IMG/VR virus record: IMGVR_UViG_2740892210_000013
Reading direction: 5' to 3' (one strand)
From: a virus
Lineage: Duplodnaviria; Heunggongvirae; Uroviricota; Caudoviricetes
DNA: 37,133 nt
In this document: positions 1 through 27,288 of the stretch, piece after piece
Layout of the letters: each line of letters starts with the position of its first letter
Position numbering within the stretch: the stretch's first letter is position 1
Position numbers and translations under genes: made by a program
The notes under the pieces: model-generated
Seen by the model: only the letters and a program-made list of their open reading frames with translations
What the model was told of the DNA's origin: nothing
The model's database searches: none

Positions 1-1008
1 CTAATCGATGGACAGTTTATGGACACTTTCAGCCAGCGGATTAAAGTTGATCGCGTCCAGTAAAAAGTCCGGCGAAAAATGAGCGTACGTCATTGTTTGC
101 TGAATCGTTGCGTGCCCCAGGATTCGTTGCAACGTAACAATATTTCCGCCATTCATCATAAAGTGTGTGGCAAATGTATGACGCATGACATGCGTAGCCT
201 GCCCCTTCGGCAAATCCGGTTTCACCTCCTGAAGAATCTCCCGGAACTTCAGATAATCAACCTGATACAATAACCCCGTTCGACGGGTTTTAATCAGAGG
301 CACGACCGAATCCGCCACAGGAACCGAACGGGATTTTCCGTTTTTGGTGTTAAAGAACGTCACCCGGTTGCCAACGATATGCTCTCCACGTAGTTCCGAT
401 GCTTCACTCCATCGGGCACCAGTAGAAAGACACAGAATGGCAACACGACGCGCATCACCCTCCAGTCGCTCAAGAAGCCGTTCAATCTCATCATCAGAAA
501 GAAAGGCCATCTCTGTGTTCTGAACTTTCAGTTTTCGTATACCGCGTACAGGGTTCGCGTTGTGAAAGACCTCAGCTTCAATCAGCACCGTGAACATGGT
601 AGACAGTACGCATAAGTCACGATTAATACTGGACGGCATTAATCCGGCCTGTAATTTCTCTGACCGATATTCAAGCATAAATTTTCGCGTCATCTGACTG
701 GCGCGAGGATCTCCCATTTCACGAACAACCTTCCCTAGCCTAACCCTGTAGCTATCCCCGTAAGCCTGATTACGCCCATCAAGCATCCACCACGCATCAA
801 GCAGCTCTGATAATCGCCGCTGATCAGCTGGCTTAGCCTGCCATGGCTTGTCATGAAAGTTCTGTAACACATACTTCTCAAACTCCTGAGCCTTTGATTT
901 CAGGGCAAAGATTTTTCGAATCCGCTTTCCTTCCGCCCCCTGCGGTCTGACATCGACCTGATAACGTCCGTCTTTGAGTTGCTTAATCGACATGATTAGC
1001 CCCTCCAA
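1..1008 (-). CDS. int: P2-type tyrosine integrase (site-specific recombinase)
   Basis: 335-aa ORF; C-terminal catalytic region HVMRHTFATHF (H-x-x-R) and TMTYAHF (catalytic Tyr); sits next to the C repressor as in P2-like phages. Confidence 0.9.
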   Translation of the reverse strand: MEGLIMSIKQLKDGRYQVDVRPQGAEGKRIRKIFALKSKAQEFEKYVLQNFHDKPWQAKPADQRRLSELLDAWWMLDGRNQAYGDSYRVRLGKVVREMGDPRASQMTRKFMLEYRSEKLQAGLMPSSINRDLCVLSTMFTVLIEAEVFHNANPVRGIRKLKVQNTEMAFLSDDEIERLLERLEGDARRVAILCLSTGARWSEASELRGEHIVGNRVTFFNTKNGKSRSVPVADSVVPLIKTRRTGLLYQVDYLKFREILQEVKPDLPKGQATHVMRHTFATHFMMNGGNIVTLQRILGHATIQQTMTYAHFSPDFLLDAINFNPLAESVHKLSID

Positions 1009-1062: not shown

Positions 1063-1404
1063 TCAGCCAACATTGCGGCCTGATCGGGGTGATTTTTGGG
1101 TAATACCGATTGAAACCTGATCGCCCTCCGACTGAATAGATCCATCAAGAGAGAGAGCCGGAGCAATCTGCCCGGCGACAGGTAGCGTCTTATCTTTTAT
1201 TAGCCACAGCATGTATTTTTCAAAGCGATCGACTTGCAGAACCGCCTCAACGATTTTTGCTCTAGCGTTCTTTTGCCCCGATTCGTAATTCCTTATGGTT
1301 GCCAAAGACAACCCAGTAATATCCGCAAACTGCTTTTGTGTTAACCCTTCCGCCTTACGTATCTGACGTAACTTTTTTGCGTAGTCTATTGACAAGATAA
1401 CCAT
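1063..1404 (-). CDS. C: P2 C-type immunity repressor (HTH); ORF extends to 1458 but start at 1404 (MVILSIDY...) has a GAGAGG RBS
   Basis: HTH region LTQKQFADITGLSLATIRNYESG and the GQIAPAL motif that I recall from P2 C; divergent from the early operon. Confidence 0.7.
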   Translation of the reverse strand: MVILSIDYAKKLRQIRKAEGLTQKQFADITGLSLATIRNYESGQKNARAKIVEAVLQVDRFEKYMLWLIKDKTLPVAGQIAPALSLDGSIQSEGDQVSIGITQKSPRSGRNVG

Positions 1405-1449
1405 TTGAGTATTAACCTCTCGCACAAAGATAACCTTTTGGTTATCTTT
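1389..1449 (+). promoter_or_regulatory. Early promoter/operator region: TTGACA (1389-1394), 15-bp spacer, TATTAA (1410-1415); perfect palindrome AAAGATAACC-TTTT-GGTTATCTTT (1426-1449) plus extra half-site AAGATAACC (1394-1402)
   Basis: Read directly in the sequence between C and the first rightward ORF; the repeated half-site suggests a repressor operator. Confidence 0.45.
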
Positions 1450-1508
1450 ACAAGCCAAAACAAACCATCACAAGGCGCGACAAGCGCACCAACGCAAGAG
1501 GATAACAA

Positions 1509-2030
1509 ATGCGGGACTTCATTGCCGATAAAGAGTTATCTGACCACCAACCACTTCAGGAAAGTGACGCACTCAGCGGATCCATTGATGCCGCCAACGA
1601 CGACGAGCACGAAGAAAACAAGAAAAAGCGTTCCTACAAAAAAGGAGCGACTTTGCGGCTGGATGGTCCGATCGCCGGGCTTTGCTCTCTGGAAAAAGGC
1701 GCGGCATATATTGGGCTAACAAAATCTGCACTGCGCGTAGCCATTCATCGCGGTCAAATGCCGGGACACAAGACGCGCACAAACCCGGAAGATGAAAACT
1801 CAGACGGAGTATGGTGGTTTAACGCCAAAGAGTGGGACAAGTTGGCTGATGAGCTACCAGAGCACGAGCCCCCAGAATGGCACAACTGGAAAAGTTACTG
1901 GACGTATGACCGCCAGAAAAGGAAGTTCTCTCCAGCTAATAAAGAAGACTGCCAGACCATTAACGGTAAGCGAGTTTATACAGGCAGAAGCTCAAAACTG
2001 GACCAACTCAGAAACAACAGAGGCAACTAA
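1509..2030 (+). CDS. First early-operon protein with HTH (Cox/Apl position); 173 aa, longer than P2 Cox, true start uncertain
   Basis: AAGAGG RBS 8 nt upstream of the ATG; HTH-like segment AAYIGLTKSALRVAIHRGQMP; occupies the cox slot after C. Confidence 0.5.
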   Translation: MRDFIADKELSDHQPLQESDALSGSIDAANDDEHEENKKKRSYKKGATLRLDGPIAGLCSLEKGAAYIGLTKSALRVAIHRGQMPGHKTRTNPEDENSDGVWWFNAKEWDKLADELPEHEPPEWHNWKSYWTYDRQKRKFSPANKEDCQTINGKRVYTGRSSKLDQLRNNRGN

Positions 2031-4328: not shown

Positions 4329-4532
4329 ATGGCAATTAAGCATTTTCCCGTCGTTCGCTTTACCTCCAGAGGGCGCGAATACGAGGTCGACGAACGCCTG
4401 ATTACCACTATCGACAAACATCGTTCGGAAAAGGATGCACACCACATCTACCTCACTGACGGCACTTACTTCTGCGCCACCAACGTGGCGCGGGTGAATC
4501 TTATCCGACAGGTACAGGAGCCACGCAGATGA
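4329..4532 (+). CDS. Hypothetical early protein (67 aa)
   Basis: ORF whose stop overlaps the next gene's start. Confidence 0.45.
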   Translation: MAIKHFPVVRFTSRGREYEVDERLITTIDKHRSEKDAHHIYLTDGTYFCATNVARVNLIRQVQEPRR

Positions 4533-4795
4533 CCATTCTGGACTACATCGCTACTCATCCGGGGTGTAGCGGCGGAGAGATCGCCGCAGCACTGAATACT
4601 CCAACCACAGCCATTAATGCTGAGTTACGCCAACTTTGGCGCGGCGGCTTAGTCATCAGAACAAACCGCAGCACAGGTGGTCGCGCTCGCAAAACTGGAG
4701 GCCAGGCTTCTTACCACGTAAACCCGATGCCGTTCGGGTGTAGCAATCCACTTACTCACATGTTTAACCAGCTACTGAAGGAAGCCAGAGCATGA
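4529..4795 (+). CDS. Hypothetical early protein (88 aa)
   Basis: ORF translationally coupled to both neighbours; no recognisable motif. Confidence 0.45.
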   Translation: MTILDYIATHPGCSGGEIAAALNTPTTAINAELRQLWRGGLVIRTNRSTGGRARKTGGQASYHVNPMPFGCSNPLTHMFNQLLKEARA

Positions 4796-5091
4796 GCACC
4801 ATCAACCACCAGAAGCTACGCGAACTGGCATTTGCCCTGCAACGAATGGCAACGCCTCAAAAATTACTGGCATTTCGCGCAATGCTCTCGCCGTCTGCTG
4901 TGCTGGCATTGCTGGATGAGCTGGAGCACGCCAGAACCACGGCTCCTGCCATTCGCCTGACGCTCCATCATGAAATCGCTGATTTCTGCGCGACATTGGA
5001 GGCGCCAGGCGAACCGGAAACGCCGGAAGCAATACAGCAAGAGCTGCTGCAACGCATTGACAAGGTTTTTGATTTTTTTCTGAACCAGTAA
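4792..5091 (+). CDS. Hypothetical early protein (99 aa)
   Basis: ORF overlapping the upstream stop codon. Confidence 0.45.
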   Translation: MSTINHQKLRELAFALQRMATPQKLLAFRAMLSPSAVLALLDELEHARTTAPAIRLTLHHEIADFCATLEAPGEPETPEAIQQELLQRIDKVFDFFLNQ

Positions 5092-5413
5092 GAAACCAGA
5101 GCATGCACACACAAAAAAACCGCTTGCCATGCCGCAATCGGTCAGGTTACATTTCCGCTGCACCTCATAAAACGGGTGCCGGGATTCTCAACCCGATACA
5201 GAGCAAAGCGCATAACCGCGCCAGCGGTTTTTTTGTGCGTACTGTATTGCCACGTCTTTTTCGCGTCAGAATTATGGCGGGGCGTACGGGGCCGACTTCG
5301 GTCGGGCCGGATTCTTTGCTCTCCGGTGTTGAGAACCCTGTACGTCTCGCCACCCCGAGATTCTCAACTCTGGATGGTGAGTTATTTCTATCACCGAGCA
5401 AAGAGGCCACACC

Positions 5414-5644
5414 ATGGCAAACCGCAAACAGCACCGCGCTATCGCGGAGCGTCGTCACATCCAGACTGAAATCAACCGCAGACTTTCCCGCGCATTCCGC
5501 GTCGCTAAAATCATGCACATCAATATGCTGCATGAGCGTAGCTGCGAACTTTCAAACCTCTACTCATCCGCTGTTTTCAGCTATCTGGCGGATGATCTGC
5601 GCGAGCTTCAACAGCTCATCCAGCAGCAAAACAAACTCCATTAA
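5414..5644 (+). CDS. Hypothetical early protein (76 aa)
   Basis: AAGAGG RBS 7 nt upstream of the ATG. Confidence 0.45.
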   Translation: MANRKQHRAIAERRHIQTEINRRLSRAFRVAKIMHINMLHERSCELSNLYSSAVFSYLADDLRELQQLIQQQNKLH

Positions 5645-5716
5645 TTCCTGTTCCGGGCCTTTCCTGCACCTTGCGGCGGGAGGCCTTCGCACATCTGTAA
5701 CAAGAGGATTGCCGCA

Positions 5717-6082
5717 ATGATTCTCGCCAACGACTTTCTTGAATACCTGCTCAACACAGAGCGTGATCTTGCCGCTCGCGTACGTGATCGTTATGACATG
5801 TATCTGAAATCCCTGCCTGTGCCGCAGCTCGCTGACGGAAAGATTGTTATTGATGGTCGCTACATGATTGACAGCCACGAGGGAAATTACAGGCTTTACC
5901 GCATTGAAGGTGGCACCCCGTCCGTTATTGGCATTTACCAGCGCCCATCCTCTGCAATCGTCGATGTGATTGCCGACAGCATCCGCATCACACATCGCCA
6001 TGCCGACACAGAAGACACCGTGCTGGAAATTCAGCGGCTGGCTGCCGTCTGCCGCGACACCCTGAATGGCATGACGAAGTAA
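5717..6082 (+). CDS. Hypothetical early protein (121 aa) immediately upstream of A
   Basis: ORF ending 6 nt before the A start codon. Confidence 0.45.
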   Translation: MILANDFLEYLLNTERDLAARVRDRYDMYLKSLPVPQLADGKIVIDGRYMIDSHEGNYRLYRIEGGTPSVIGIYQRPSSAIVDVIADSIRITHRHADTEDTVLEIQRLAAVCRDTLNGMTK

Positions 6083-6088
6083 ATCACT

Positions 6089-8911
6089 ATGACGGCAGAG
6101 TACATCAGGGACTGGCAACAACCGCGCCACGCAGTGGGACGTGAAGGAACGGGGATCCCCGTTCCTGAATCCGCGCTTTCCTCCTGGCTGGATGCCTACC
6201 GGGCAGAGAACGAGCGCCGCCAGGAAATGGCTGATGCGGCGTTCTCCGCCACGCCGCTGGGCAACCTGATTAATAAAAGCCTGGATGCACAGGAAAAACA
6301 GGACAAAACCATCACACTGGCAGGAGACGCCAGAAAACAGGTACGCGGTGCGGTGGATGAAGCCATGGCCTCGCTGCGCCTGCTGCCGTCCTATCTGCGC
6401 GATCCGCTTATTCGCCACCTCTCCTTCCTGCGCAAAAAACAGGAAGCCGATCGCCGGAAAGGCAAAAAGAGCTGGCAGGCTGAACGCTACGCGCGCGGAA
6501 CCCTGCGCAAAATATTCGAACGTCTGGACCGCACCGACCACCGCTGGCTGACACCGGGTTATCGCTCCCTTGCCGGACGCGAACGCCTGGATGATTTGCT
6601 TTACCTGCCGCAGCTCAACAAGCACCAGATACAGACGCTGGCCACCATGACGGCGGCGATGTTCAGCAGCACCTTCGAAAAACTCTGCGATGGCTTTGGC
6701 GCGACTGATGGCGAGCTGACCATGGATGTAACGCTGAAGGCGTATCAGATGCTGGCCCGCATGGCGTTACACCTGCACGCCATGCCTCCGCATTATGACG
6801 CACTGACAACAGACAAAGACCGGAGGAACGAACCGGACACGGAGCTGCTGCCGGGCGCAATCCTTCGCCTGACCTGTGCGGAATGGTGGAAACGCAAACT
6901 GTGGCTGTTACGTTGCGAGTGGCGGGAAGAACAACTCCGCGCCGCCTGTCTGGTTTCCAGAAAAACATCGCCCTATCTGAGCCAGGACGCGTTAAGCGAG
7001 TTTCGCGCACAGCGCGAGAAAACACGCGATTTCCTGAAAAGTTTCATGCTGGAAAACGAAGACGGGTTCACGATTGATCTCGAGACGGTGTATTACGCGG
7101 GAGTAAGTAACCCGGTTCACCGTAAGGCAGAAATGATGGCCACCATGAAGGGGCTGGAACTTCTGGCCGAAGCCCGTGGCGACAAAGCGGTGTTTCTGAC
7201 TGTCACCTGCCCGTCAAAATACCACGCCACAACAGAGAACGGTCATCCGAATCCCAAATGGAACGGGGCCACCATGCGCGACTCCAGCGATTACCTGGTT
7301 AACACGTTTTTTGCGGCGGTCCGCAAGAAACTGAACCGCGACGGCCTGCGCTGGTATGGCATCCGCACGGTGGAGCCTCACCATGACGGCACCGTGCACT
7401 GGCATATGATGGTCTTTGCTCATCCGGAAGAAATCGACACCATTGTGTCCCACACCCGCGATATTGCCATTCAGGAAGATCGTCACGAGCTGGGTGATGA
7501 TATTACCCCACGCTTTAAGGCGGAGTACGTCGACGGCTCAAAAGGCACACCGACCAGCTACATCGCCACCTACATCGGGAAAAACCTGGACAGCCGTGCC
7601 GTGGATGGCATCGACCCGAAAACGGGCAAGCCACGCGTTGACCACGAAACCGGAAAATCAATGGCCGAGAGCGTGGAACGCGCCATCGGCTGGGCGCGCC
7701 TTCACCGGGTCCGCCAGTTCCAGTTCTTTGGTATCCCCTCCCGTCAGGTGTGGCGTGAACTGCGCCGCCTTGCCAGCCAGATGGCTCGCAACCCGGAAGG
7801 ACCGCAACGGCTGAAGGATGACGCAATGGACGCGGTTCTTGCTGCCGCTGATGCCGGATGTTTTGCCACCTACATAGAGAAACAGGGCGGCGTACTTGTT
7901 CCACGCAAGGACTACCTGATTCGCACCGCCTACGACCTCGCCGATGAGCTGAACGATTACGGTGAACAGAGCGTACAGATTTACGGGATCTGGTCACCGC
8001 TCATCGGGGAGTCTTCCCGCGTATGCACGCATCCGGACAACTGGAAGCTGGTAAGACGCAAACCGGAAGCGGAAGACAGCGCCCGCGAAAATGGTTTTGA
8101 CCTTCAGGGCGGCCCTGCCGCACCTTGGACTCGTGGCAATAACTGTCCCCGTGTACAGGAAACGGACAACAACGGGACAGAACAGCCGGAAGAACGGCCA
8201 GCACCGTGGCCGCAGCTTCCTGACGGCGTTGACGTGAACGAATGGATGCGCTCACTGAAACGGCACGAACGCCGGGCGCTGATGCGTTCGCTGCGTGACA
8301 AACAGGCAAAAAACAGCAGTGATGAAATGCAGAGCTGGACACAGAGCCGCAAACAGCAGCGGCCTTTGCCTGATAACCACGAATTACTCGCTAAAGAATG
8401 GCGGGAATCTGCCGAATCTCTCGGCCTGCATATCGGTGAACAGCAGATGCAGCACCTGTTACGGGGCGGCAGCCTGTACGTTGACGGCAGCATCATTGCA
8501 CCGCAGGGATTTGAAATTGTACGCAAACCGGATACCCGCCCGGACAGCCGAATCACGCAGCTCTGGCAGCGCCTGAGCCGTAATCACGGCGTAAGCAGCA
8601 CGGAGATCCGCCATAACCCGGTCGCCAGCTATCTGGAACAGCTGGGGGCATCAGACCCCGAAGCCGCCGCACGTCTGGCATCCACACTTCAGCAGGACCA
8701 GAACACCATGAACCCCCCCGTTACCGTGCTTTCTGACATGCTGCGCGCCATCCGCGACGCAGAGCACGCACAGAGAATCAGTGAAACCACTGAACGTGCC
8801 CGCCGCAAAGCAGACCTGCTGCGGGGTGGCCTGACCAGTGGAAACAAAAAACAGACAGAAACGGGATTCACAAATCCCGTAAATGAGCAAAAAACGCGCC
8901 GCGATATATGA
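6089..8911 (+). CDS. A: P2 gpA-family replication initiation endonuclease (rolling-circle), 940 aa with a long C-terminal extension
   Basis: HWHMMVF (H-u-H-type) motif; large size and position after the early operon as in P2; longer than the P2 A size I recall. Confidence 0.8.
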   Translation: MTAEYIRDWQQPRHAVGREGTGIPVPESALSSWLDAYRAENERRQEMADAAFSATPLGNLINKSLDAQEKQDKTITLAGDARKQVRGAVDEAMASLRLLPSYLRDPLIRHLSFLRKKQEADRRKGKKSWQAERYARGTLRKIFERLDRTDHRWLTPGYRSLAGRERLDDLLYLPQLNKHQIQTLATMTAAMFSSTFEKLCDGFGATDGELTMDVTLKAYQMLARMALHLHAMPPHYDALTTDKDRRNEPDTELLPGAILRLTCAEWWKRKLWLLRCEWREEQLRAACLVSRKTSPYLSQDALSEFRAQREKTRDFLKSFMLENEDGFTIDLETVYYAGVSNPVHRKAEMMATMKGLELLAEARGDKAVFLTVTCPSKYHATTENGHPNPKWNGATMRDSSDYLVNTFFAAVRKKLNRDGLRWYGIRTVEPHHDGTVHWHMMVFAHPEEIDTIVSHTRDIAIQEDRHELGDDITPRFKAEYVDGSKGTPTSYIATYIGKNLDSRAVDGIDPKTGKPRVDHETGKSMAESVERAIGWARLHRVRQFQFFGIPSRQVWRELRRLASQMARNPEGPQRLKDDAMDAVLAAADAGCFATYIEKQGGVLVPRKDYLIRTAYDLADELNDYGEQSVQIYGIWSPLIGESSRVCTHPDNWKLVRRKPEAEDSARENGFDLQGGPAAPWTRGNNCPRVQETDNNGTEQPEERPAPWPQLPDGVDVNEWMRSLKRHERRALMRSLRDKQAKNSSDEMQSWTQSRKQQRPLPDNHELLAKEWRESAESLGLHIGEQQMQHLLRGGSLYVDGSIIAPQGFEIVRKPDTRPDSRITQLWQRLSRNHGVSSTEIRHNPVASYLEQLGASDPEAAARLASTLQQDQNTMNPPVTVLSDMLRAIRDAEHAQRISETTERARRKADLLRGGLTSGNKKQTETGFTNPVNEQKTRRDI

Positions 8912-8987: not shown

Positions 8988-9947
8988 ATGAAAATTTGTA
9001 TCGACGACGGCTCCACCAACATCAAGCTGGCATGGACTGAGAATGGCGAACGCCGCAACGCCATCAGCCCGAACAGCTTCAAGTCGGAATGGTCTGCGCC
9101 GTTCGGTGGCATGCAGCCCGCGAACTACATGCTTGATGGCGTGCGCTATGGTTTTGATCCGGTCAGCGATCGCTTTGTCCAGACGACCGACACGCAATAC
9201 CAGTACAGCGATGTGAATGTAATCGCCATTCATCACGCGCTGGTCAAATCAGGCATCACGCCACAGGAGGTGGATGTGGTTGTCACCCTGCCACTGAGCG
9301 AGTATTTCGACACAAACGCACAGCCGGACATGGCCAACATCAACCGCAAAAAAGCGAACGTTATGCGCCCGGTGGAGTACCAGAACGGCGAAGCATTCAC
9401 TATCCGTAACGTGCGGGTTATGCCTGAATCCATTCCGGCTGGCTTTAAAGCACTGGCTGACATGAGTCCGTTTGAATCCCTGCTGATTGTGGATTTAGGC
9501 GGAACCACGCTGGATGTGGCAAAGGTTCAGGGGCAACTGGCAGGTATCAGCCAGGTGTTTTGCGATCCACACGTAGGCGTCTCCCTGATGGCCGGTGCCG
9601 TGCTGTCGGTGATGGCCGCTAACGGTATGCGTACCAGTCACCACATCGCCAATACCATTATCGAACATCGCCATGATGAAGCCTGGTTGCGCCAACACAT
9701 CCACAATGACGCGCATTACGCCAGCCTGATGGCGGTTATTCGTGAAAAGGAAGAAACACTGAAACAACGCGTGATCCGCGCGCTGGCGGGTTTTTCGGGT
9801 TACGGGCGGGTGATGGTTGTCGGTGGCGGGGCGGAGATTGTGGCACCCGCTATCCGCGAAGCCTGCGGAGTTAATGCGACTTTCATCGCGGACGGGGTGC
9901 CACAGTTTGCTCTGGTTAATGGGCTGTACGCAATGGACAAGGAGTAA
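8988..9947 (+). CDS. parM: ParM/StbA-like actin-type segregation ATPase
   Basis: N-terminus MKICIDDGSTNIKLAW, ISPNSFK and QYSDVNVIAIHHALVKSG closely match what I recall of plasmid R1 ParM; 319 aa. Confidence 0.8.
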   Translation: MKICIDDGSTNIKLAWTENGERRNAISPNSFKSEWSAPFGGMQPANYMLDGVRYGFDPVSDRFVQTTDTQYQYSDVNVIAIHHALVKSGITPQEVDVVVTLPLSEYFDTNAQPDMANINRKKANVMRPVEYQNGEAFTIRNVRVMPESIPAGFKALADMSPFESLLIVDLGGTTLDVAKVQGQLAGISQVFCDPHVGVSLMAGAVLSVMAANGMRTSHHIANTIIEHRHDEAWLRQHIHNDAHYASLMAVIREKEETLKQRVIRALAGFSGYGRVMVVGGGAEIVAPAIREACGVNATFIADGVPQFALVNGLYAMDKE

Positions 9948-24698: not shown

Positions 24699-26710
24699 CA
24701 GCGAAATACTACGCCATTCTGACTAATCAGGGCGCGGAACGACTGGCTAACGCGACGATGCTCGGCAGTAAGCTGAATTTGACGCAAATGGCCGTTGGTG
24801 ATGCAAATGGTGTGTTACCAACACCAAACCCTGCACAAACAAAACTGATTAACCAGAAACGCATTGCACCGCTGAATCTTCTGAATGTTGACCCTAACAA
24901 TCAGAGCCAGATTATTGCGGAGCAAATCATCCCTGAAGACGAGGGAGGATTCTGGATCCGTGAGATTGGTCTTTATGATGATAAAGGTGTACTCATTGCG
25001 GTGGCAAACTGCCCGGAAACGTACAAACCGCAGTTGCAGGAAGGCAGTGGACGCACCCAGACTATCCGCATGATTCTGGTTGTCACGAACACCAAAGCCA
25101 TCACGCTGAAAATCGACCCGTCTGTGGTTCTGGCAACCCGCAAATATGTGGATGATAAAATCTCAAAGCACGAGCAGTCACGACGTCACCCGGACGCCTC
25201 GCTGACCGCAAAAGGCTTTGTTCAACTCAGTAGCGCCACTAACAGCGATTCTGAAACGCTGGCTGCAACGCCGAAAGCGGTTAAGGCCGCGTATGACCTT
25301 GCTAACGCAAAATATACCGCTCAGGACGCCACGACGGCACGAAAAGGCATTGTCCAGCTCAGTAGCGCCACCAACAGCGATTCAGAAACGCTGGCGGCAA
25401 CACCAAAGGCGGTAAAGGCAGCCTATGACCTTGCTAACGGGAAATATACCGCACAGGACGCCACGACGGCACAAAAAGGAATTGTCCAGCTCAGTAGTGC
25501 AACCAACAGCACATCTGAAACGCTTGCTGCAACACCGAAAGCAGTGAAAGCAGCTAATGACAATGCGAATGGTCGGGTACCTTCTGCCCGTAAGGTGAAT
25601 GGTAAGGCGCTTTCGGCGGATATAACACTGACGCCGAAAGATATTGGTACGCTTAACTCAACAACAATGTCATTCAGCGGTGGTGCTGGTTGGTTCAAAT
25701 TAGCAACGGTAACCATGCCACAGGCGAGTTCTGTTGTTTCAATTACGTTGATTGGTGGCGCTGGATTTAACGTCGGTTCACCTCAACAGGCAGGTATATC
25801 TGAACTTGTTTTGCGTGCAGGTAATGGTAATCCGAAGGGGATTACTGGTGCTTTATGGCAGCGCACATCGACAGGGTTTACAAATTTTGCCTGGGTCAAT
25901 ACATCTGGTGATACTTACGATATTTACGTTGCAATCGGAAATTATGCGACTGGTGTAAATATTCAATGGGATTATACCAGTAATGCCAGCGTGACGATTC
26001 ATACGTCACCAGCATATTCTGCTAATAAGCCGGAAGGGTTAACGGACGGTACAGTTTATTCACTCTATACGCCATCAGAGCAGTTTTATCCGCCTGGCGC
26101 ACCAATCCCGTGGCCATCGGATACCGTTCCGTCTGGTTATGCCCTGATGCAGGGGCAGACTTTTGACAAATCTGCATACCCAAAACTTGCAGCGGCTTAT
26201 CCGTCAGGCGTGATCCCTGATATGCGTGGCTGGACGATTAAGGGCAAACCCGCCAGTGGCCGGGCCGTATTGTCTCAGGAACAGGACGGCATTAAATCGC
26301 ACACCCACAGCGCCAGCGCATCCAGTACGGATTTGGGTACGAAAACCACATCGTCGTTTGATTACGGGACGAAAACAACCTCACTATTTGACTATGGGAC
26401 CAAAACTACCAGTAACGACGGGAGTCACACGCATTCAATACCAACATCAGATGGTGCAAACCAGGGGGGGAAAATTCCACTGACATCTGGGCGTCTGGCA
26501 ACTCAATATACATCAGCAACAACAGGTTCCTCTGGCTCACATTCTCATACTGTAGGTATTGGTTCTCATCAGCACACTGTCGGTATTGGTGCACACACGC
26601 ACTCCGTTGCGATTGGCTCACATGGACACACCATCACCGTTAACGCTGCTGGTAACGCGGAAAACACCGTCAAAAACATCGCATTTAACTATATTGTGAG
26701 GCTTGCATAA
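24695..26710 (+). CDS. H: Tail fiber protein gpH with internal tandem repeats and His-rich C-terminal receptor-binding region
   Basis: N-terminal ~170 aa and the repeated [43 protein letters not shown] unit match P2 H as I recall it; C-terminal [33 protein letters not shown] repeats. Confidence 0.9.
25211..25570 (+). repeat. About 2.8 tandem copies of a 129-bp (43-aa) repeat inside H
   Basis: Amino-acid identical units with synonymous nucleotide differences, read directly. Confidence 0.8.
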
Positions 26711-27288
26711 TGGCATTCAGAATGAGTGAACAATCACGGACCATAAAAATTTATAATCTACTGACCGGAACCAATGAGTTTATTGGTGAAGGTGATGCAT
26801 ACATTCCACCTCATACAGGTCTGCCAGCAAACAGTACCGATATTGCCCCGCCAGATATTCCGGCTGGCTTCGTGGCCGTTTTCAACAGTGATGAGGCATC
26901 GTGGCATCTCGTTGAAGACCATCGGGGTAAAACGGTTTATGACGTGGCATCAGGGGACTCGTTATTTATTTCTGAACTCGGTCCATTACCGGAAAATGTT
27001 ACCTGGTTGTCGCCGTATGGAGAGTATCAGAAGTGGAACGGCACATCCTGGGGGAAAGATGCAGAAGCAGAAAAACTGTTTCGGATAAGGGAGGCGGAAG
27101 AAACAAAAAACAGCCTGATGCAGGTAGCCAGTGAGCATATTGCACCACTTCAGGATGCTATAGATTTAGATATTGCGACGGAGGAAGAGACATCGTTACT
27201 GGCTGCATGGAAGACATATCGAGTATTGTTGCATCGTGTTGATACAACAGTAGCAGCAGATATTGAGTGGCCAGTCGCCCCACAATAA
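26710..27288 (+). CDS. G: Tail fiber assembly chaperone gpG (Tfa)
   Basis: 192 aa directly after H with overlapping stop/start; Tfa-like size and position. Confidence 0.8.

Follow-up and report, generated by a model that had tools for sequence, protein, structure and literature searches.

The DNA analysed here (the window, 37,133 nt) carries a P88-like prophage (Xuanwuvirus, P2-family). In the early operon of this prophage, the stretch from 5092 to 5413 forms a gap whose neighbouring genes are an Ead/Ea22-like gene, an epsilon-like gene, orf121 and gpA. The conserved portion of the gap begins at about position 5110, even in relatives that carry a different upstream gene. An earlier note on this DNA had described the gap as a small structured RNA or clustered regulator sites, pointing to repeated motifs, their inverted copies, a hairpin with a T-run and a hairpin with a UUCG loop. 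All of these features are present at the positions given, and both halves of the description are borne out: the gap contains two small structured RNAs, whose RNA–RNA recognition sites are the repeated words. What the note missed was the P1 immI / P4 architecture, the overlap of one word (b2) with a ribosome binding site, and the epsilon-type nature of the next gene.

The 10-mer GATTCTCAAC occurs exactly at 5183 and 5359, and an inverted copy with one mismatch (GTTGAGAAcC) is located at 5328-5337. Similarly, GAGCAAAG occurs exactly at 5201 and 5396 and is inverted at 5314. The window contains six copies of GAGCAAAG versus 1.5 expected, a number reached in none of 100 shuffles, and three of these copies are packed inside 200 nt. 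For the 10-mer, three of the four copies fall inside 186 nt; its window-wide count is not significant, as 22 of 100 shuffles reach four. A repeat search lengthens the motif matches to arms of 9-14 nt. Better evidence than these counts is provided by matches to covariance models (E = 6e-14 and 3e-11). In an Rfam covariance-model search of the whole window, of the kind the earlier note had proposed, an IsrK/seqA-like RNA and a C4/CI-like RNA scored above their gathering scores, and both are confined to the + strand (Table 1). Good folding is also seen for the minus strand (z = -3.7), as would be the case with any structured region, but none of the Rfam matches above gathering score is on that strand.

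Table 1. Positions of the features discussed in the text, with the matches or pairings that identify them.
Feature	Position	Strand	Basis or remark
P2 C-type immunity repressor	1063..1458	-	36% identity to P2 C over the whole length, E = 2e-23
21-nt inverted repeat, 5′ arm	5107..5127	+	Partner at 5220-5240; 19 of 21 positions pair
Candidate sigma-70 promoter-like site	5124..5153	+	TTGCCA, 18 nt, TACATT; consensus scan
IsrK / P4 seqA-type sRNA	5160..5234	+	Rfam RF01394, 62.8 bits vs cutoff 50, E = 2.7e-11
a1, GATTCTCAAC	5183..5192	+	Loop of IsrK hairpin 2; complementary to C4 a′
b1, AGAGCAAAG	5200..5208	+	Single-stranded linker of IsrK; complementary to C4 b′
IsrK intrinsic terminator	5214..5234 (hairpin 5214-5229 plus T7)	+	AACCGC-GCCA-GCGGTT then T7; within the Rfam isrK model
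C4 / P4 CI-type antisense RNA	5270..5357	+	Rfam RF01695, 78.5 bits vs cutoff 45, E = 6.4e-14
b′, UCUUUGCUC	5313..5321	+	Loop of C4 hairpin 2
a′, GUUGAGAACC	5328..5337	+	Unpaired junction of C4
a2, GATTCTCAAC	5359..5368	+	Directly 3′ of C4
b2, GAGCAAAGA	5396-5404 (site 5396..5406)	+	Overlaps Shine-Dalgarno AAGAGG, 5401-5406
Putative regulated gene, 76-aa homologue of P4 epsilon (E) derepression/anti-repressor protein	5414..5644	+	Pfam PF25738 Derepression, E = 6e-7, above cutoff
orf121, downstream in the same transcription unit	5717-6082	+	ORF list; synteny with annotated relatives
gpA-type replication initiator (gene A)	6089-8911	+	Pfam Phage_GPA, E = 2e-131; synteny with annotated relatives

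The IsrK-like RNA is composed of two 5′ hairpins, a single-stranded linker and an intrinsic terminator (fold z = -2.5), and it ends in the terminator U-run typical of Hfq-bound sRNAs. The candidate promoter, which like the terminator was called by consensus matching, ends 6 nt ahead of the start of the IsrK model, and transcription is predicted to begin near 5160. This site is conserved in 47 unique relatives, and hexamers resembling -35 and -10 elements lie equally far from the 5′ hairpin of IsrK in P4 and in three lambdoid loci. By position, the candidate promoter is the equivalent of P4 PLE and of Gifsy-1 PisrK, for which promoter activity has been demonstrated (PMC4825925). The c4-a1b1 motif (RF03163) matches at 5147-5199 with 15.9 bits, below its cutoff of 46.7; the upstream part of the module is of the isrK variety rather than the c4-a1b1 variety. 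A minus-strand match to the CRISPR repeat RF01343 (5201-5237, 21.7 bits vs cutoff 39) was rejected, as it represents the IsrK terminator read backwards.

A 21-nt inverted repeat is placed around IsrK. Its 3′ arm is formed by the 3′ half of the IsrK terminator plus the U-run, and its 5′ arm sits at the extreme start of the conserved module. The minimum free energy (MFE) structure of 5095-5245 uses the long helix between these arms. The repeat is nearly invariant among relatives, and the few length and base changes found in a search for covariation are equivocal: run lengths agree (A6/T6) in one relative, T5 stands against A7 in another, and a G-to-A change breaks one pair in a further relative. 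A comparable repeat around isrK is absent from P4 and two lambdoid loci, and the lambdoid phage ASU11 has only a 10-nt one. The 5′ arm may act as an anti-terminator arm limited to transcripts arriving from upstream, or may be half of a minus-strand terminator.

The C4-like RNA begins 35 nt 3′ of IsrK, which bears copies of the C4 target words, and its match to the Rfam model is full-length (model positions 1-87). A 17-bp closing stem surrounds two hairpins, the first of which is the GC hairpin CCGAC-UUCG-GUCGG (5292-5305) and the second of which presents b′ in its loop. The a′ word lies unpaired in the 3′ junction, and the RNA ends in ...GCCACC. The MFE structure (-47.6 kcal/mol, z = -5.6) is identical to the consensus fold. 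Among 16 sequences from P88-like phages, lambdoid phages and P4, 15 of the 27 pairs in this fold have compensatory changes on both sides, and there is one broken cell. The sequence context for excision by RNase P (a 5′ GG at the base of the stem and an ACC-like 3′ tail) is seen at both flanks, with AAUUAU preceding GGCG... on the 5′ side and ...CGCCACC on the 3′ side. A second promoter for C4 (TTGCCA-17-AATTAT, 5247-5275) was considered and rejected, as transcription would start within the C4 stem. We regard this site as a chance match because many relatives have TCGCCA at the -35 position, and because what looks like a -10 element is the conserved sequence that flanks the C4 model on its 5′ side.

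Each of the two recognition words is present three times in the module: in IsrK, as its complement in C4, and in the leader of the epsilon-like gene. The duplex of b′ with b2 has nine of nine Watson-Crick pairs plus one G·U pair and spans the AAGAGG sequence, which is 7 nt ahead of the ATG at 5414. In the region of a′, nucleotides 5322-5335 pair with 5361-5374 at 12 of 14 positions. The earlier note had called for a comparison with homologous phages and for an alignment examined for compensatory changes. Across 87 such loci, which comprise 47 unique sequences, the repeats keep their positions and the scaffold hardly varies. Almost all differences are found within the six recognition sites, and the changes in the words compensate each other. 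The three a copies covary, as do the three b copies, giving five a-types, 13 b-types and 17 combinations of a′ and b′, always with the change made at all three copies. Cognate duplexes of C4 with its targets have a mean of -31.6 kcal/mol versus -20.1 kcal/mol for non-cognate ones. In two types (L054 and L067) some cognate pairs are kept solely by G·U wobble, which argues for pairing between RNAs rather than for a site in DNA. One a-type, TTCGCAG/CTGCGAA, is common to P88-like phages and ASU11, and none of the five a-types matches the P4 words. The exact C4 loop type of the window was found in 39 IMG/VR contigs, all 39 of which carry an epsilon-like gene downstream. Cross-talk with other types of element was also considered and was rejected, as the exact C4 loop type is confined to epsilon-like contexts in the IMG/VR search.

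The gene whose ribosome binding site is overlapped by b2 encodes a protein with 29% identity to P4 epsilon (BLASTP, E = 1e-8), and its frame spans 75-76 codons in every relative checked. P4 E works by binding P2 C (PMC2995052), and by analogy the P2 C-type repressor (131 aa) encoded elsewhere in the prophage is the likely target of the epsilon-like protein. The residue equivalent to Thr67 of P2 C (the sos site) is Lys in the prophage repressor, and this substitution and the low identity to P4 epsilon (29%) count against the model.

Three studied systems share much of this organization. In P4, whose IsrK-like/C4-like pair is seqA/CI (PMC3632133), the order is PLE, seqA, CI RNA (seqB), seqC and, further downstream, epsilon and alpha. 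Both Rfam models match P4, with order and strand as here (isrK at 8615-8692, C4/CI at 8420-8507), followed by epsilon, and a promoter is present at the equivalent position. P4 likewise has one copy of the a and b words in IsrK/seqA, their complement in CI/C4 and a further copy downstream, where the b word lies on a Shine-Dalgarno sequence (TTCACAGGAGG ... ATG), and a homologous epsilon 'derepression' gene and then a replication gene follow. In contrast to P4, which is a satellite, the present element is carried by a complete P2-family phage with capsid genes, tail genes and a gpA rolling-circle initiator. The epsilon homologue directly follows seqC/b2, whereas other coding sequence intervenes in P4; IsrK and C4 are 35 nt apart here and 107 nt apart in P4; and the recognition words are different. 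By analogy, the epsilon-like protein here would target the phage's own C-type repressor, whereas that of P4 targets the repressor of its helper. No homology was found between orf121 and P4 ORF151.

The immI region of P1 and P7 (c4 - icd - ant) has the same RNA family (RF01695), upstream a1/b1 copies, a b2 copy at the ribosome binding site of the first downstream gene, and an anti-repressor as the final target. P1/P7 C4 is processed by RNase P, with b′ occluding the ribosome binding site and a′ conferring specificity (summarised in PMC5320573), and small differences in the a and b words result in heteroimmunity (PMC5320573, PMC8546580). The present module differs from immI in that its upstream a1/b1 part fits the isrK model rather than c4-a1b1, it lacks an icd-like leader gene, its anti-repressor belongs to the epsilon type instead of Ant1/Ant2, and its primary repressor is P2 C-type instead of P1 C1. 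The Salmonella prophage Gifsy-1 (isrK - orf45/STnc1160 - anrP) likewise has an IsrK sRNA that is made from a promoter of its own and ends at a leaky terminator, with a processed RNA close behind it and then an anti-repressor gene. PisrK drives both IsrK and a read-through anti-repressor mRNA, the processed STnc1160 lies downstream of IsrK, and translation of the anti-repressor is silent by default (PMC4825925). Related lambdoid loci have isrK and C4 matches followed by a gene with a Rha domain. Gifsy-1 differs from the present case in having an anti-repressor of the Rha/AnrP type and a lambdoid rather than P2-family phage. Its published model also puts the emphasis on IsrK as an activator and on translation of orf45, a gene without equivalent in the present module.

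Given these observations, we propose that the gap is an antisense-RNA immunity module of the P1 immI / P4 seqA-CI-seqC type that works as set out below, and we assign this reading a probability of about 85%. Membership in the RNA families, structure, complementarity, overlap with the ribosome binding site, three-way covariation and homology of the regulated gene are all observed directly. The module is an ordinary member of an already described family, and the understanding of the mechanism is unchanged by its addition.

The proposed scheme takes transcription, processing, repression, polarity and inactivation of the phage's own C-type repressor by the epsilon-like protein from P1, P4 and Gifsy-1. 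The constitutive promoter would initiate transcription near 5160, and most transcripts would end at the IsrK terminator to yield an IsrK/seqA-like sRNA of about 75 nt. The C4/CI-like RNA (about 5275-5355) would be contained in read-through transcripts and in those coming from the upstream early promoter, from which it would be excised, with RNase P acting on the 5′ side by analogy with P1 and P4. Its hairpin loop (b′) and junction (a′) would then pair with b2 and a2 in the epsilon-like leader. Given the overlap of b2 with the Shine-Dalgarno sequence, C4 would mask the ribosome binding site and leave the epsilon-like anti-repressor untranslated, and the loss of translation would probably lead to premature end of transcription before orf121 and gene A, which by analogy would thus come under polarity control. 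As IsrK holds a second copy of both target words (a1 and b1), it would be able to compete for C4, or might pair in cis within an unprocessed transcript, and in this way may set the threshold of the switch. A match to a1/b1 is not strictly required, given that one natural recombinant (L119) has a non-cognate IsrK ahead of a cognate set of C4, a2 and b2. The a and b words would serve as a specificity code, and its variation among otherwise near-identical phages suggests that silencing is type-specific, such that each type would silence only its own kind (heteroimmunity). The module model does not account for lytic expression of the essential gene A beyond an intrinsic terminator and C4.

Two other explanations deny that the conserved element is RNA. 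A 205-codon ORF (5103..5720) that crosses the gap is called 'ash family protein', 'transcriptional regulator' or 'hypothetical protein' elsewhere, and a protein-coding region would agree with a frame that stays open for 204-206 codons in most relatives and with matches, weak to moderate in strength, to several PHROG 'transcriptional regulator' families. Its match to Pfam Phage_ASH (PF10554) reaches E = 9e-6 in P88_4B11; here it is E = 0.0025 and 18.7 bits against a cutoff of 26, which places the ORF outside the Ash family. However, the start codon is missing (CCG or TCG) in about one-third of the relatives, early stops occur in two, and the matched residues (about 13-122) cover both RNAs as well as the beginning of the epsilon-like gene. 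In P4, the ORF with a Phage_ASH match (8168-8584) likewise overlaps the CI RNA (8420-8507). P4 immunity is attributed to the CI RNA and not to the old 'cI' ORF. The 'Ash' part of the ASU11 protein is an N-terminal over-extension of a gene with a Rha domain, and coding would leave the three-way complementary covariation unexplained. The earlier note had dismissed 5103..5720 as the only ORF across the gap, low-complexity and implausible. Its implausibility stands because the ORF wholly overlaps the real gene 5414..5644 in another frame; it is not notably low in complexity, and other ORFs also cross the gap (5176..5469 on the + strand; 5165..5533 and 5272..5427 on the minus strand). We consider a coding function highly improbable, and the same is true of the proposal that the repeats are DNA operators bound by a protein such as the MarR-like product of 4529..4795. 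Direct and inverted short words do also resemble a set of protein-binding sites, and a winged-helix gene lies two genes upstream. Against this, the words are placed in the loops and junctions of RNAs that two curated covariance models recognise, several cognate sets owe their complementarity to G·U alone and hence are not identical as DNA, and the a and b words reassort independently. Moreover, the gene for the candidate protein is outside the conserved module, and the upstream genes differ in P88 and Shae_phiSM. A retron was rejected, in agreement with the earlier note: none of the genes next to the element encodes a reverse transcriptase, and the Rfam matches of the whole window include no retron family.

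Other alternatives accept the RNAs and differ in how these would act. The three studied systems read the same architecture differently, as translational block with Rho polarity in P1, as premature termination in P4 and as activation in trans by IsrK in Gifsy-1, and sequence alone cannot select the mode here. It is possible, though we do not favour it, that pairing of C4/CI with a1/b1 and a2/b2 mainly causes premature termination, at the IsrK terminator, at Rho sites or at both, with occlusion of the ribosome binding site secondary. P4 is the closest studied system, having the same two Rfam matches, their order and the downstream epsilon homologue; its mechanism is summarised as CI-dependent termination through seqA and seqC (PMC4825925), and an intrinsic terminator is present here between a1/b1 and C4. 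The position of b2 directly on the Shine-Dalgarno sequence is, however, the P1-type arrangement, and no intrinsic terminator was found from b2 to gene A. With P4-like termination, the epsilon-like gene, orf121 and gene A would stay untranscribed in the lysogen. A translational block and termination are not mutually exclusive, as the former can cause Rho termination. A positive switch of the Gifsy-1 type is about as probable as P4-like termination: the read-through leader would hide the ribosome binding site in cis, excess IsrK would open it in trans, and the C4-like segment would be mainly leader structure. Such a switch would turn on the anti-repressor and lead to induction. The order of PisrK, IsrK, processed RNA (STnc1160/orf45) and anti-repressor is matched here, IsrK supplied in trans raised anrP translation more than 100-fold in Gifsy-1 (PMC4825925), and the MFE structure of 5160-5430 lacks the C4 cloverleaf, b′ and a′ being paired in cis to b2 and a2. 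Yet the segment scores as a full C4 whose covariation maintains a free-standing cloverleaf, no translated equivalent of orf45 is present, and the epsilon-like ATG comes directly after b2. Furthermore, IsrK holds the target words and not their complement, so its direct partner would be C4 rather than the leader. Finally, the module might act in conflict between mobile elements, with C4 silencing P4-like satellites or phages that share its a/b code, or the epsilon-like protein derepressing other P2-type prophages. Barquist et al. suggested that IsrK-C4 in non-P4 prophages might guard against satellites (PMC3632133), the module is common to satellites, lambdoid phages and P2-family phages, and one of its a-types recurs in lambdoid ASU11. 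This role is unlikely in view of the downstream epsilon-like gene in every IMG/VR contig with the exact loop type, the absence of P4 words from the a-types, and cognate targets that lie within the phage's own leader.

Returning to the immunity module as we favour it, a broader and rather speculative joint reading can be formulated. A complete P2-family phage, of the kind exploited by P4-like satellites, would have a P4-type RNA cassette ahead of its own epsilon-type anti-repressor, so that an RNA switch and not SOS cleavage would decide induction by inactivation of its own C repressor. The two-word code, with at least 17 natural combinations, would reassort by recombination. The 21-nt repeat (5107-5127 / 5220-5240) would tie termination to the promoter of origin: in transcripts from the early promoter, the upstream arm would be present and would tie up the IsrK terminator, giving read-through to gene A, and those from the internal promoter would end as IsrK.

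The element is present in 1178 of 5426 complete E. coli genomes, O157:H7 strains among them, and in many E. coli strains, again with O157:H7 isolates, the copy is 99% or more identical. It is routinely annotated as a protein under the same names as the ORF discussed above. Recognition of the element as RNA would correct many database records, and the data suggest that PF10554, like several of the PHROG 'regulator' families, consists at least partly of translated conserved RNA. An invariant scaffold with 5 × 13 words in 17 combinations offers a handy natural set for studying RNA–RNA immunity codes. As the immunity and epsilon cassette is common to P2-family phages and P4-type satellites, it bears on the origin of the derepression machinery of satellites and on possible non-SOS induction of P2-type prophages.

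When the whole window was scanned against Rfam, with the curated gathering scores as thresholds, two adjacent plus-strand matches above these scores were found in the gap between the Ead/Ea22-like gene and the gene that follows it: isrK (RF01394; 62.8 bits against 50, E = 2.7e-11) and C4 antisense RNA (RF01695; 78.5 bits against 45, E = 6.4e-14). For the upstream part, the c4-a1b1 model gives no more than a weak match (15.9 bits, cutoff 46.7). The isolated C4 segment folds in the family shape, with a 17-bp closing stem around two hairpins, the first of which has the UUCG loop (-47.6 kcal/mol, z = -5.6), and 15 of its 27 base pairs show pair-keeping changes on both sides among P88-like, lambdoid and P4 sequences, with one broken cell in that comparison. 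IsrK folds as two 5′ hairpins and a terminator (z = -2.5). The element belongs clearly to two curated RNA families and shares its layout with the well-studied P4, P1/P7 and Gifsy-1 loci; it is therefore not a new kind of system. What is new, and well supported, is its occurrence in P88-like phages, of which we found no account in the literature searched. The earlier note had proposed a small structured RNA or clustered regulator sites; this general idea was right, its motifs being the recognition words of the two RNAs, and the terminator-like and UUCG hairpins that it described are both present.

Features of the early region and of compared loci (window coordinates unless another locus is named)
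Feature	Position	Strand	Remark
Integrase gene	1..1008	-	Early region
HTH repressor gene	1063..1458	-	P2 C type, by sequence
cox	1509..2030	+	Precedes rightward early operon
Ead/Ea22-like gene	4792..5091		5′ neighbour of element
Long ORF	5103..5720		Translation over RNA region matches Phage_ASH/PHROG
Inverted repeat arms	5107-5127 / 5220-5240		21 nt, 19/21 pairs
Promoter-like site	5124-5153		TTGCCA-18-TACATT
isrK match	5160-5234	+
a word, GATTCTCAAC	5183 (a1), 5328 (a′, inverted, one mismatch), 5359 (a2)		a1 in IsrK hairpin 2 loop; a′ in unpaired C4 junction; a2 directly 3′ of C4
b word, GAGCAAAG	5201 (b1), 5314 (b′, inverted), 5396-5404 (b2)		b1 in single-stranded IsrK linker; b′ in C4 hairpin 2 loop
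Terminator hairpin	5214-5229		Followed by T7
Second promoter-like match	5247-5275		TTGCCA-17-AATTAT
C4 match	5270-5357	+
UUCG hairpin	5292-5305
Shine-Dalgarno AAGAGG	5401-5406		7 nt 5′ of ATG 5414
76-codon gene	5414..5644		3′ neighbour of element
gpA-type replication gene	6089..8911		End of rightward early operon
ParM-like segregation gene	8988-9947		3′ of replication gene
IS009 match (RF02111)	27053-27251		Within ORF 26710..27288
RNA region with Phage_ASH/PHROG-matching conceptual translation, locus L003	402-1019
RNA region with Phage_ASH/PHROG-matching conceptual translation, phage ASU11 (L006)	1458-2120
RNA region with Phage_ASH/PHROG-matching conceptual translation, P4 (L009)	8168-8584
P4 isrK match	8615-8692
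P4 C4 match	8420-8507

The prophage that makes up the window belongs to the P2 family and is of the P88/Xuanwuvirus type. The region 4792-5720 is matched over its full length at 91-94% identity in vB_EcoM-569R5, P88_4B11 and PhiR44_2, and from 5110 onward only, at 90.9%, in P88. The repressor aligns with the full length of P2 C (36% identity, E = 2e-23) and, judged by sequence, is of that type. In this integrative prophage the ParM-like gene and a partition/stability gene come after the replication gene, both annotations coming from the 94%-identical relative PV468777. Amid plus-strand late-gene ORFs, a full-length IS009 match (175.7 bits) lies entirely inside a 192-aa ORF, so that this 'sRNA' family here coincides with coding sequence.

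The closest parallel is P4, which carries matches to the same two models in the same order and strand; Barquist et al. equated seqA and CI RNA with the IsrK-like and C4-like RNAs in prophages of the P4 type (PMC3632133). The early regions of P2 and 186 contain no isrK or C4 match. The distance between promoter-like hexamers and the 5′ hairpin of IsrK is equal in the window, in P4 (at the PLE position) and in three lambdoid loci. The a words (GTGAGAA / TTCTCAC / GTGAGAA) and b words (TTCACAGG / CCTGTGAA / TTCACAGGAGG, then ATG) of P4 are arranged alike. The 76-aa product encoded downstream matches the Pfam family 'Derepression' (PF25738, E = 6e-7, over cutoff) and P4 epsilon (29% identity, E = 1e-8), an anti-repressor that binds P2 C (PMC2995052).

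Both motifs picked out by the earlier note occur where it placed them and map exactly onto the predicted RNA structure, b2 overlapping the Shine-Dalgarno sequence. In a repeat search the matches extend to 9-14 nt per arm. The b motif is over-represented in the window (six copies against 1.5 expected; at least six in 0 of 100 shuffles); the window-wide count of the 10-mer a motif is not significant by itself, and three of its four copies lie inside 186 nt. Loci were collected by their gene for the epsilon-like protein (3 genomic and 80 viral), and in every one the element precedes that gene; addition of GenBank relatives gave 87 usable loci with 47 unique sequences. The earlier note would have been refuted by a lack of conservation of the repeats among homologous phages; instead, across the 87, repeat positions are kept and the words covary: the scaffold is near-invariant, differences cluster in six short blocks (a1, b1, b′, a′, a2 and b2), and the three copies of each word fit one another at every locus, with 5 a-types, 13 b-types and 17 combinations. 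Several word sets, such as the types of loci L054 and L067, are complementary only by way of G·U pairs, as expected of RNA pairing and not of a common DNA-binding site. Predicted duplexes between C4 loops and downstream leaders average -31.6 kcal/mol for cognate and -20.1 kcal/mol for non-cognate combinations, and cognate pairing is also the stronger when the four interactions are taken singly. Conservation of the gap (86%) is lower than that of its flanking genes (about 94% over 4792-5720), which fits diversifying selection on the a/b code.

One natural recombinant (IMGVR_UViG_3300029738_000139; L119) has C4, a2 and b2 of the window's type, but its IsrK part, some 375 nt 5′ of the match to the C4 loop, differs in its words (TTTCCAC / ACAAACGAAG), in having a shorter A-run and in the stem of the terminator; a cognate upstream copy is therefore not strictly required. 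The commonest a-type of P88-like phages, TTCGCAG / CTGCGAA (e.g. L039), recurs in the IsrK-C4 module of the lambdoid phage ASU11 (1669-1681 / 1708-1720), before a Rha-type anti-repressor. Unrelated groups of phages may exchange words or entire modules.

Databases annotate the element as protein. GenBank and PGAP label the region 'ash family protein', 'transcriptional regulator' or 'hypothetical protein', or fuse it N-terminally to a Rha anti-repressor. The long ORF matches Pfam Phage_ASH (PF10554) weakly (18.7 bits, cutoff 26) and PHROG 'transcriptional regulator/repressor' families (995, 821, 6928 and 3960) better, all within residues ~4-122, a stretch lying over both RNAs and the beginning of the epsilon-like gene. 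Phage_ASH also matches (E = 4e-16) the old 'cI' ORF of P4, whose span includes the CI RNA, and the 'Ash' part of ASU11 is an N-terminal extension of its Rha-domain gene running through the RNA region; these protein families look like translations of conserved RNA. Taken as a gene, the ORF would cover all of the epsilon-like gene, read in a different frame. Roughly one third of the unique relatives have CCG or TCG in place of its ATG, and in two others or the same the frame stops early. The earlier view of it as an implausible gene stands, but two details of that view are corrected: other ORFs also cross the gap, and its translation is not notably of low complexity.

The arms of a 21-nt inverted repeat enclose the promoter and IsrK. 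The conserved module starts with the upstream arm, which is 5′ of the internal promoter, and the minimum free energy fold of 5095-5245 contains the repeat helix. In early-promoter transcripts only, this arm could pair with the terminator of IsrK and so sequester its 3′ half, which could explain how lytic transcription passes to gene A. Alternatively, the repeat could be a minus-strand intrinsic terminator (CCGATTGC-GGCATG-GCAAGCGG-T7). The few natural variants are equivocal on the anti-terminator role, and the P4 and lambdoid loci checked showed no repeat of similar length. The second promoter-like match, between the IsrK terminator and C4, is probably due to chance, since transcription from it would begin within the C4 stem and its -35 varies between relatives.

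In P1/P7, RNase P cuts C4 from a longer transcript, the b′ loop occludes a ribosome-binding site, specificity is increased by a′, and a difference of as little as 4 nt gives heteroimmunity (summarised in PMC5320573); synthesis of the anti-repressor Ant is repressed by C4 (PMC8546580). In P4, CI RNA pairs with seqA and seqC, leading to premature termination (as summarised in PMC4825925). The isrK promoter of Gifsy-1 yields short IsrK and a translationally silent read-through mRNA for the anti-repressor AnrP, which IsrK activates in trans, and the processed RNA STnc1160 lies just 3′ of IsrK (PMC4825925). The anatomy of our element is compatible with all of these modes. Beyond sequence complementarity, we infer that constitutive transcription from about 5160 most likely gives mainly IsrK, with C4 supplied by read-through. 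C4 would most likely pair with a2/b2 and block translation of the epsilon-like gene, the untranslated RNA then probably being terminated before orf121 and gene A, and IsrK, bearing the same words as the leader, would most likely be a competitor for C4. In the long transcript, b′/a′ are predicted to pair with b2/a2 in cis, so repression may start before processing.

Of 5426 complete E. coli genomes, 1178 contain a match to the 321-bp region 5100-5420, usually as one copy. The distribution of match identities has two modes, at least 99% (480 records) and 80-90% (653), which fits discrete code types. The window's exact C4 loop type occurs in 39 IMG/VR contigs, all with an epsilon-like gene and with no sign of sharing with other element kinds. 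Some E. coli genomes hold up to four copies of the element, which prompts the question whether copies sharing a genome cross-talk. Three aspects of the system are noteworthy: the diversity of its code, the presence of an epsilon-type anti-repressor and a C-type repressor in one helper-type phage, and the putative anti-terminator repeat.
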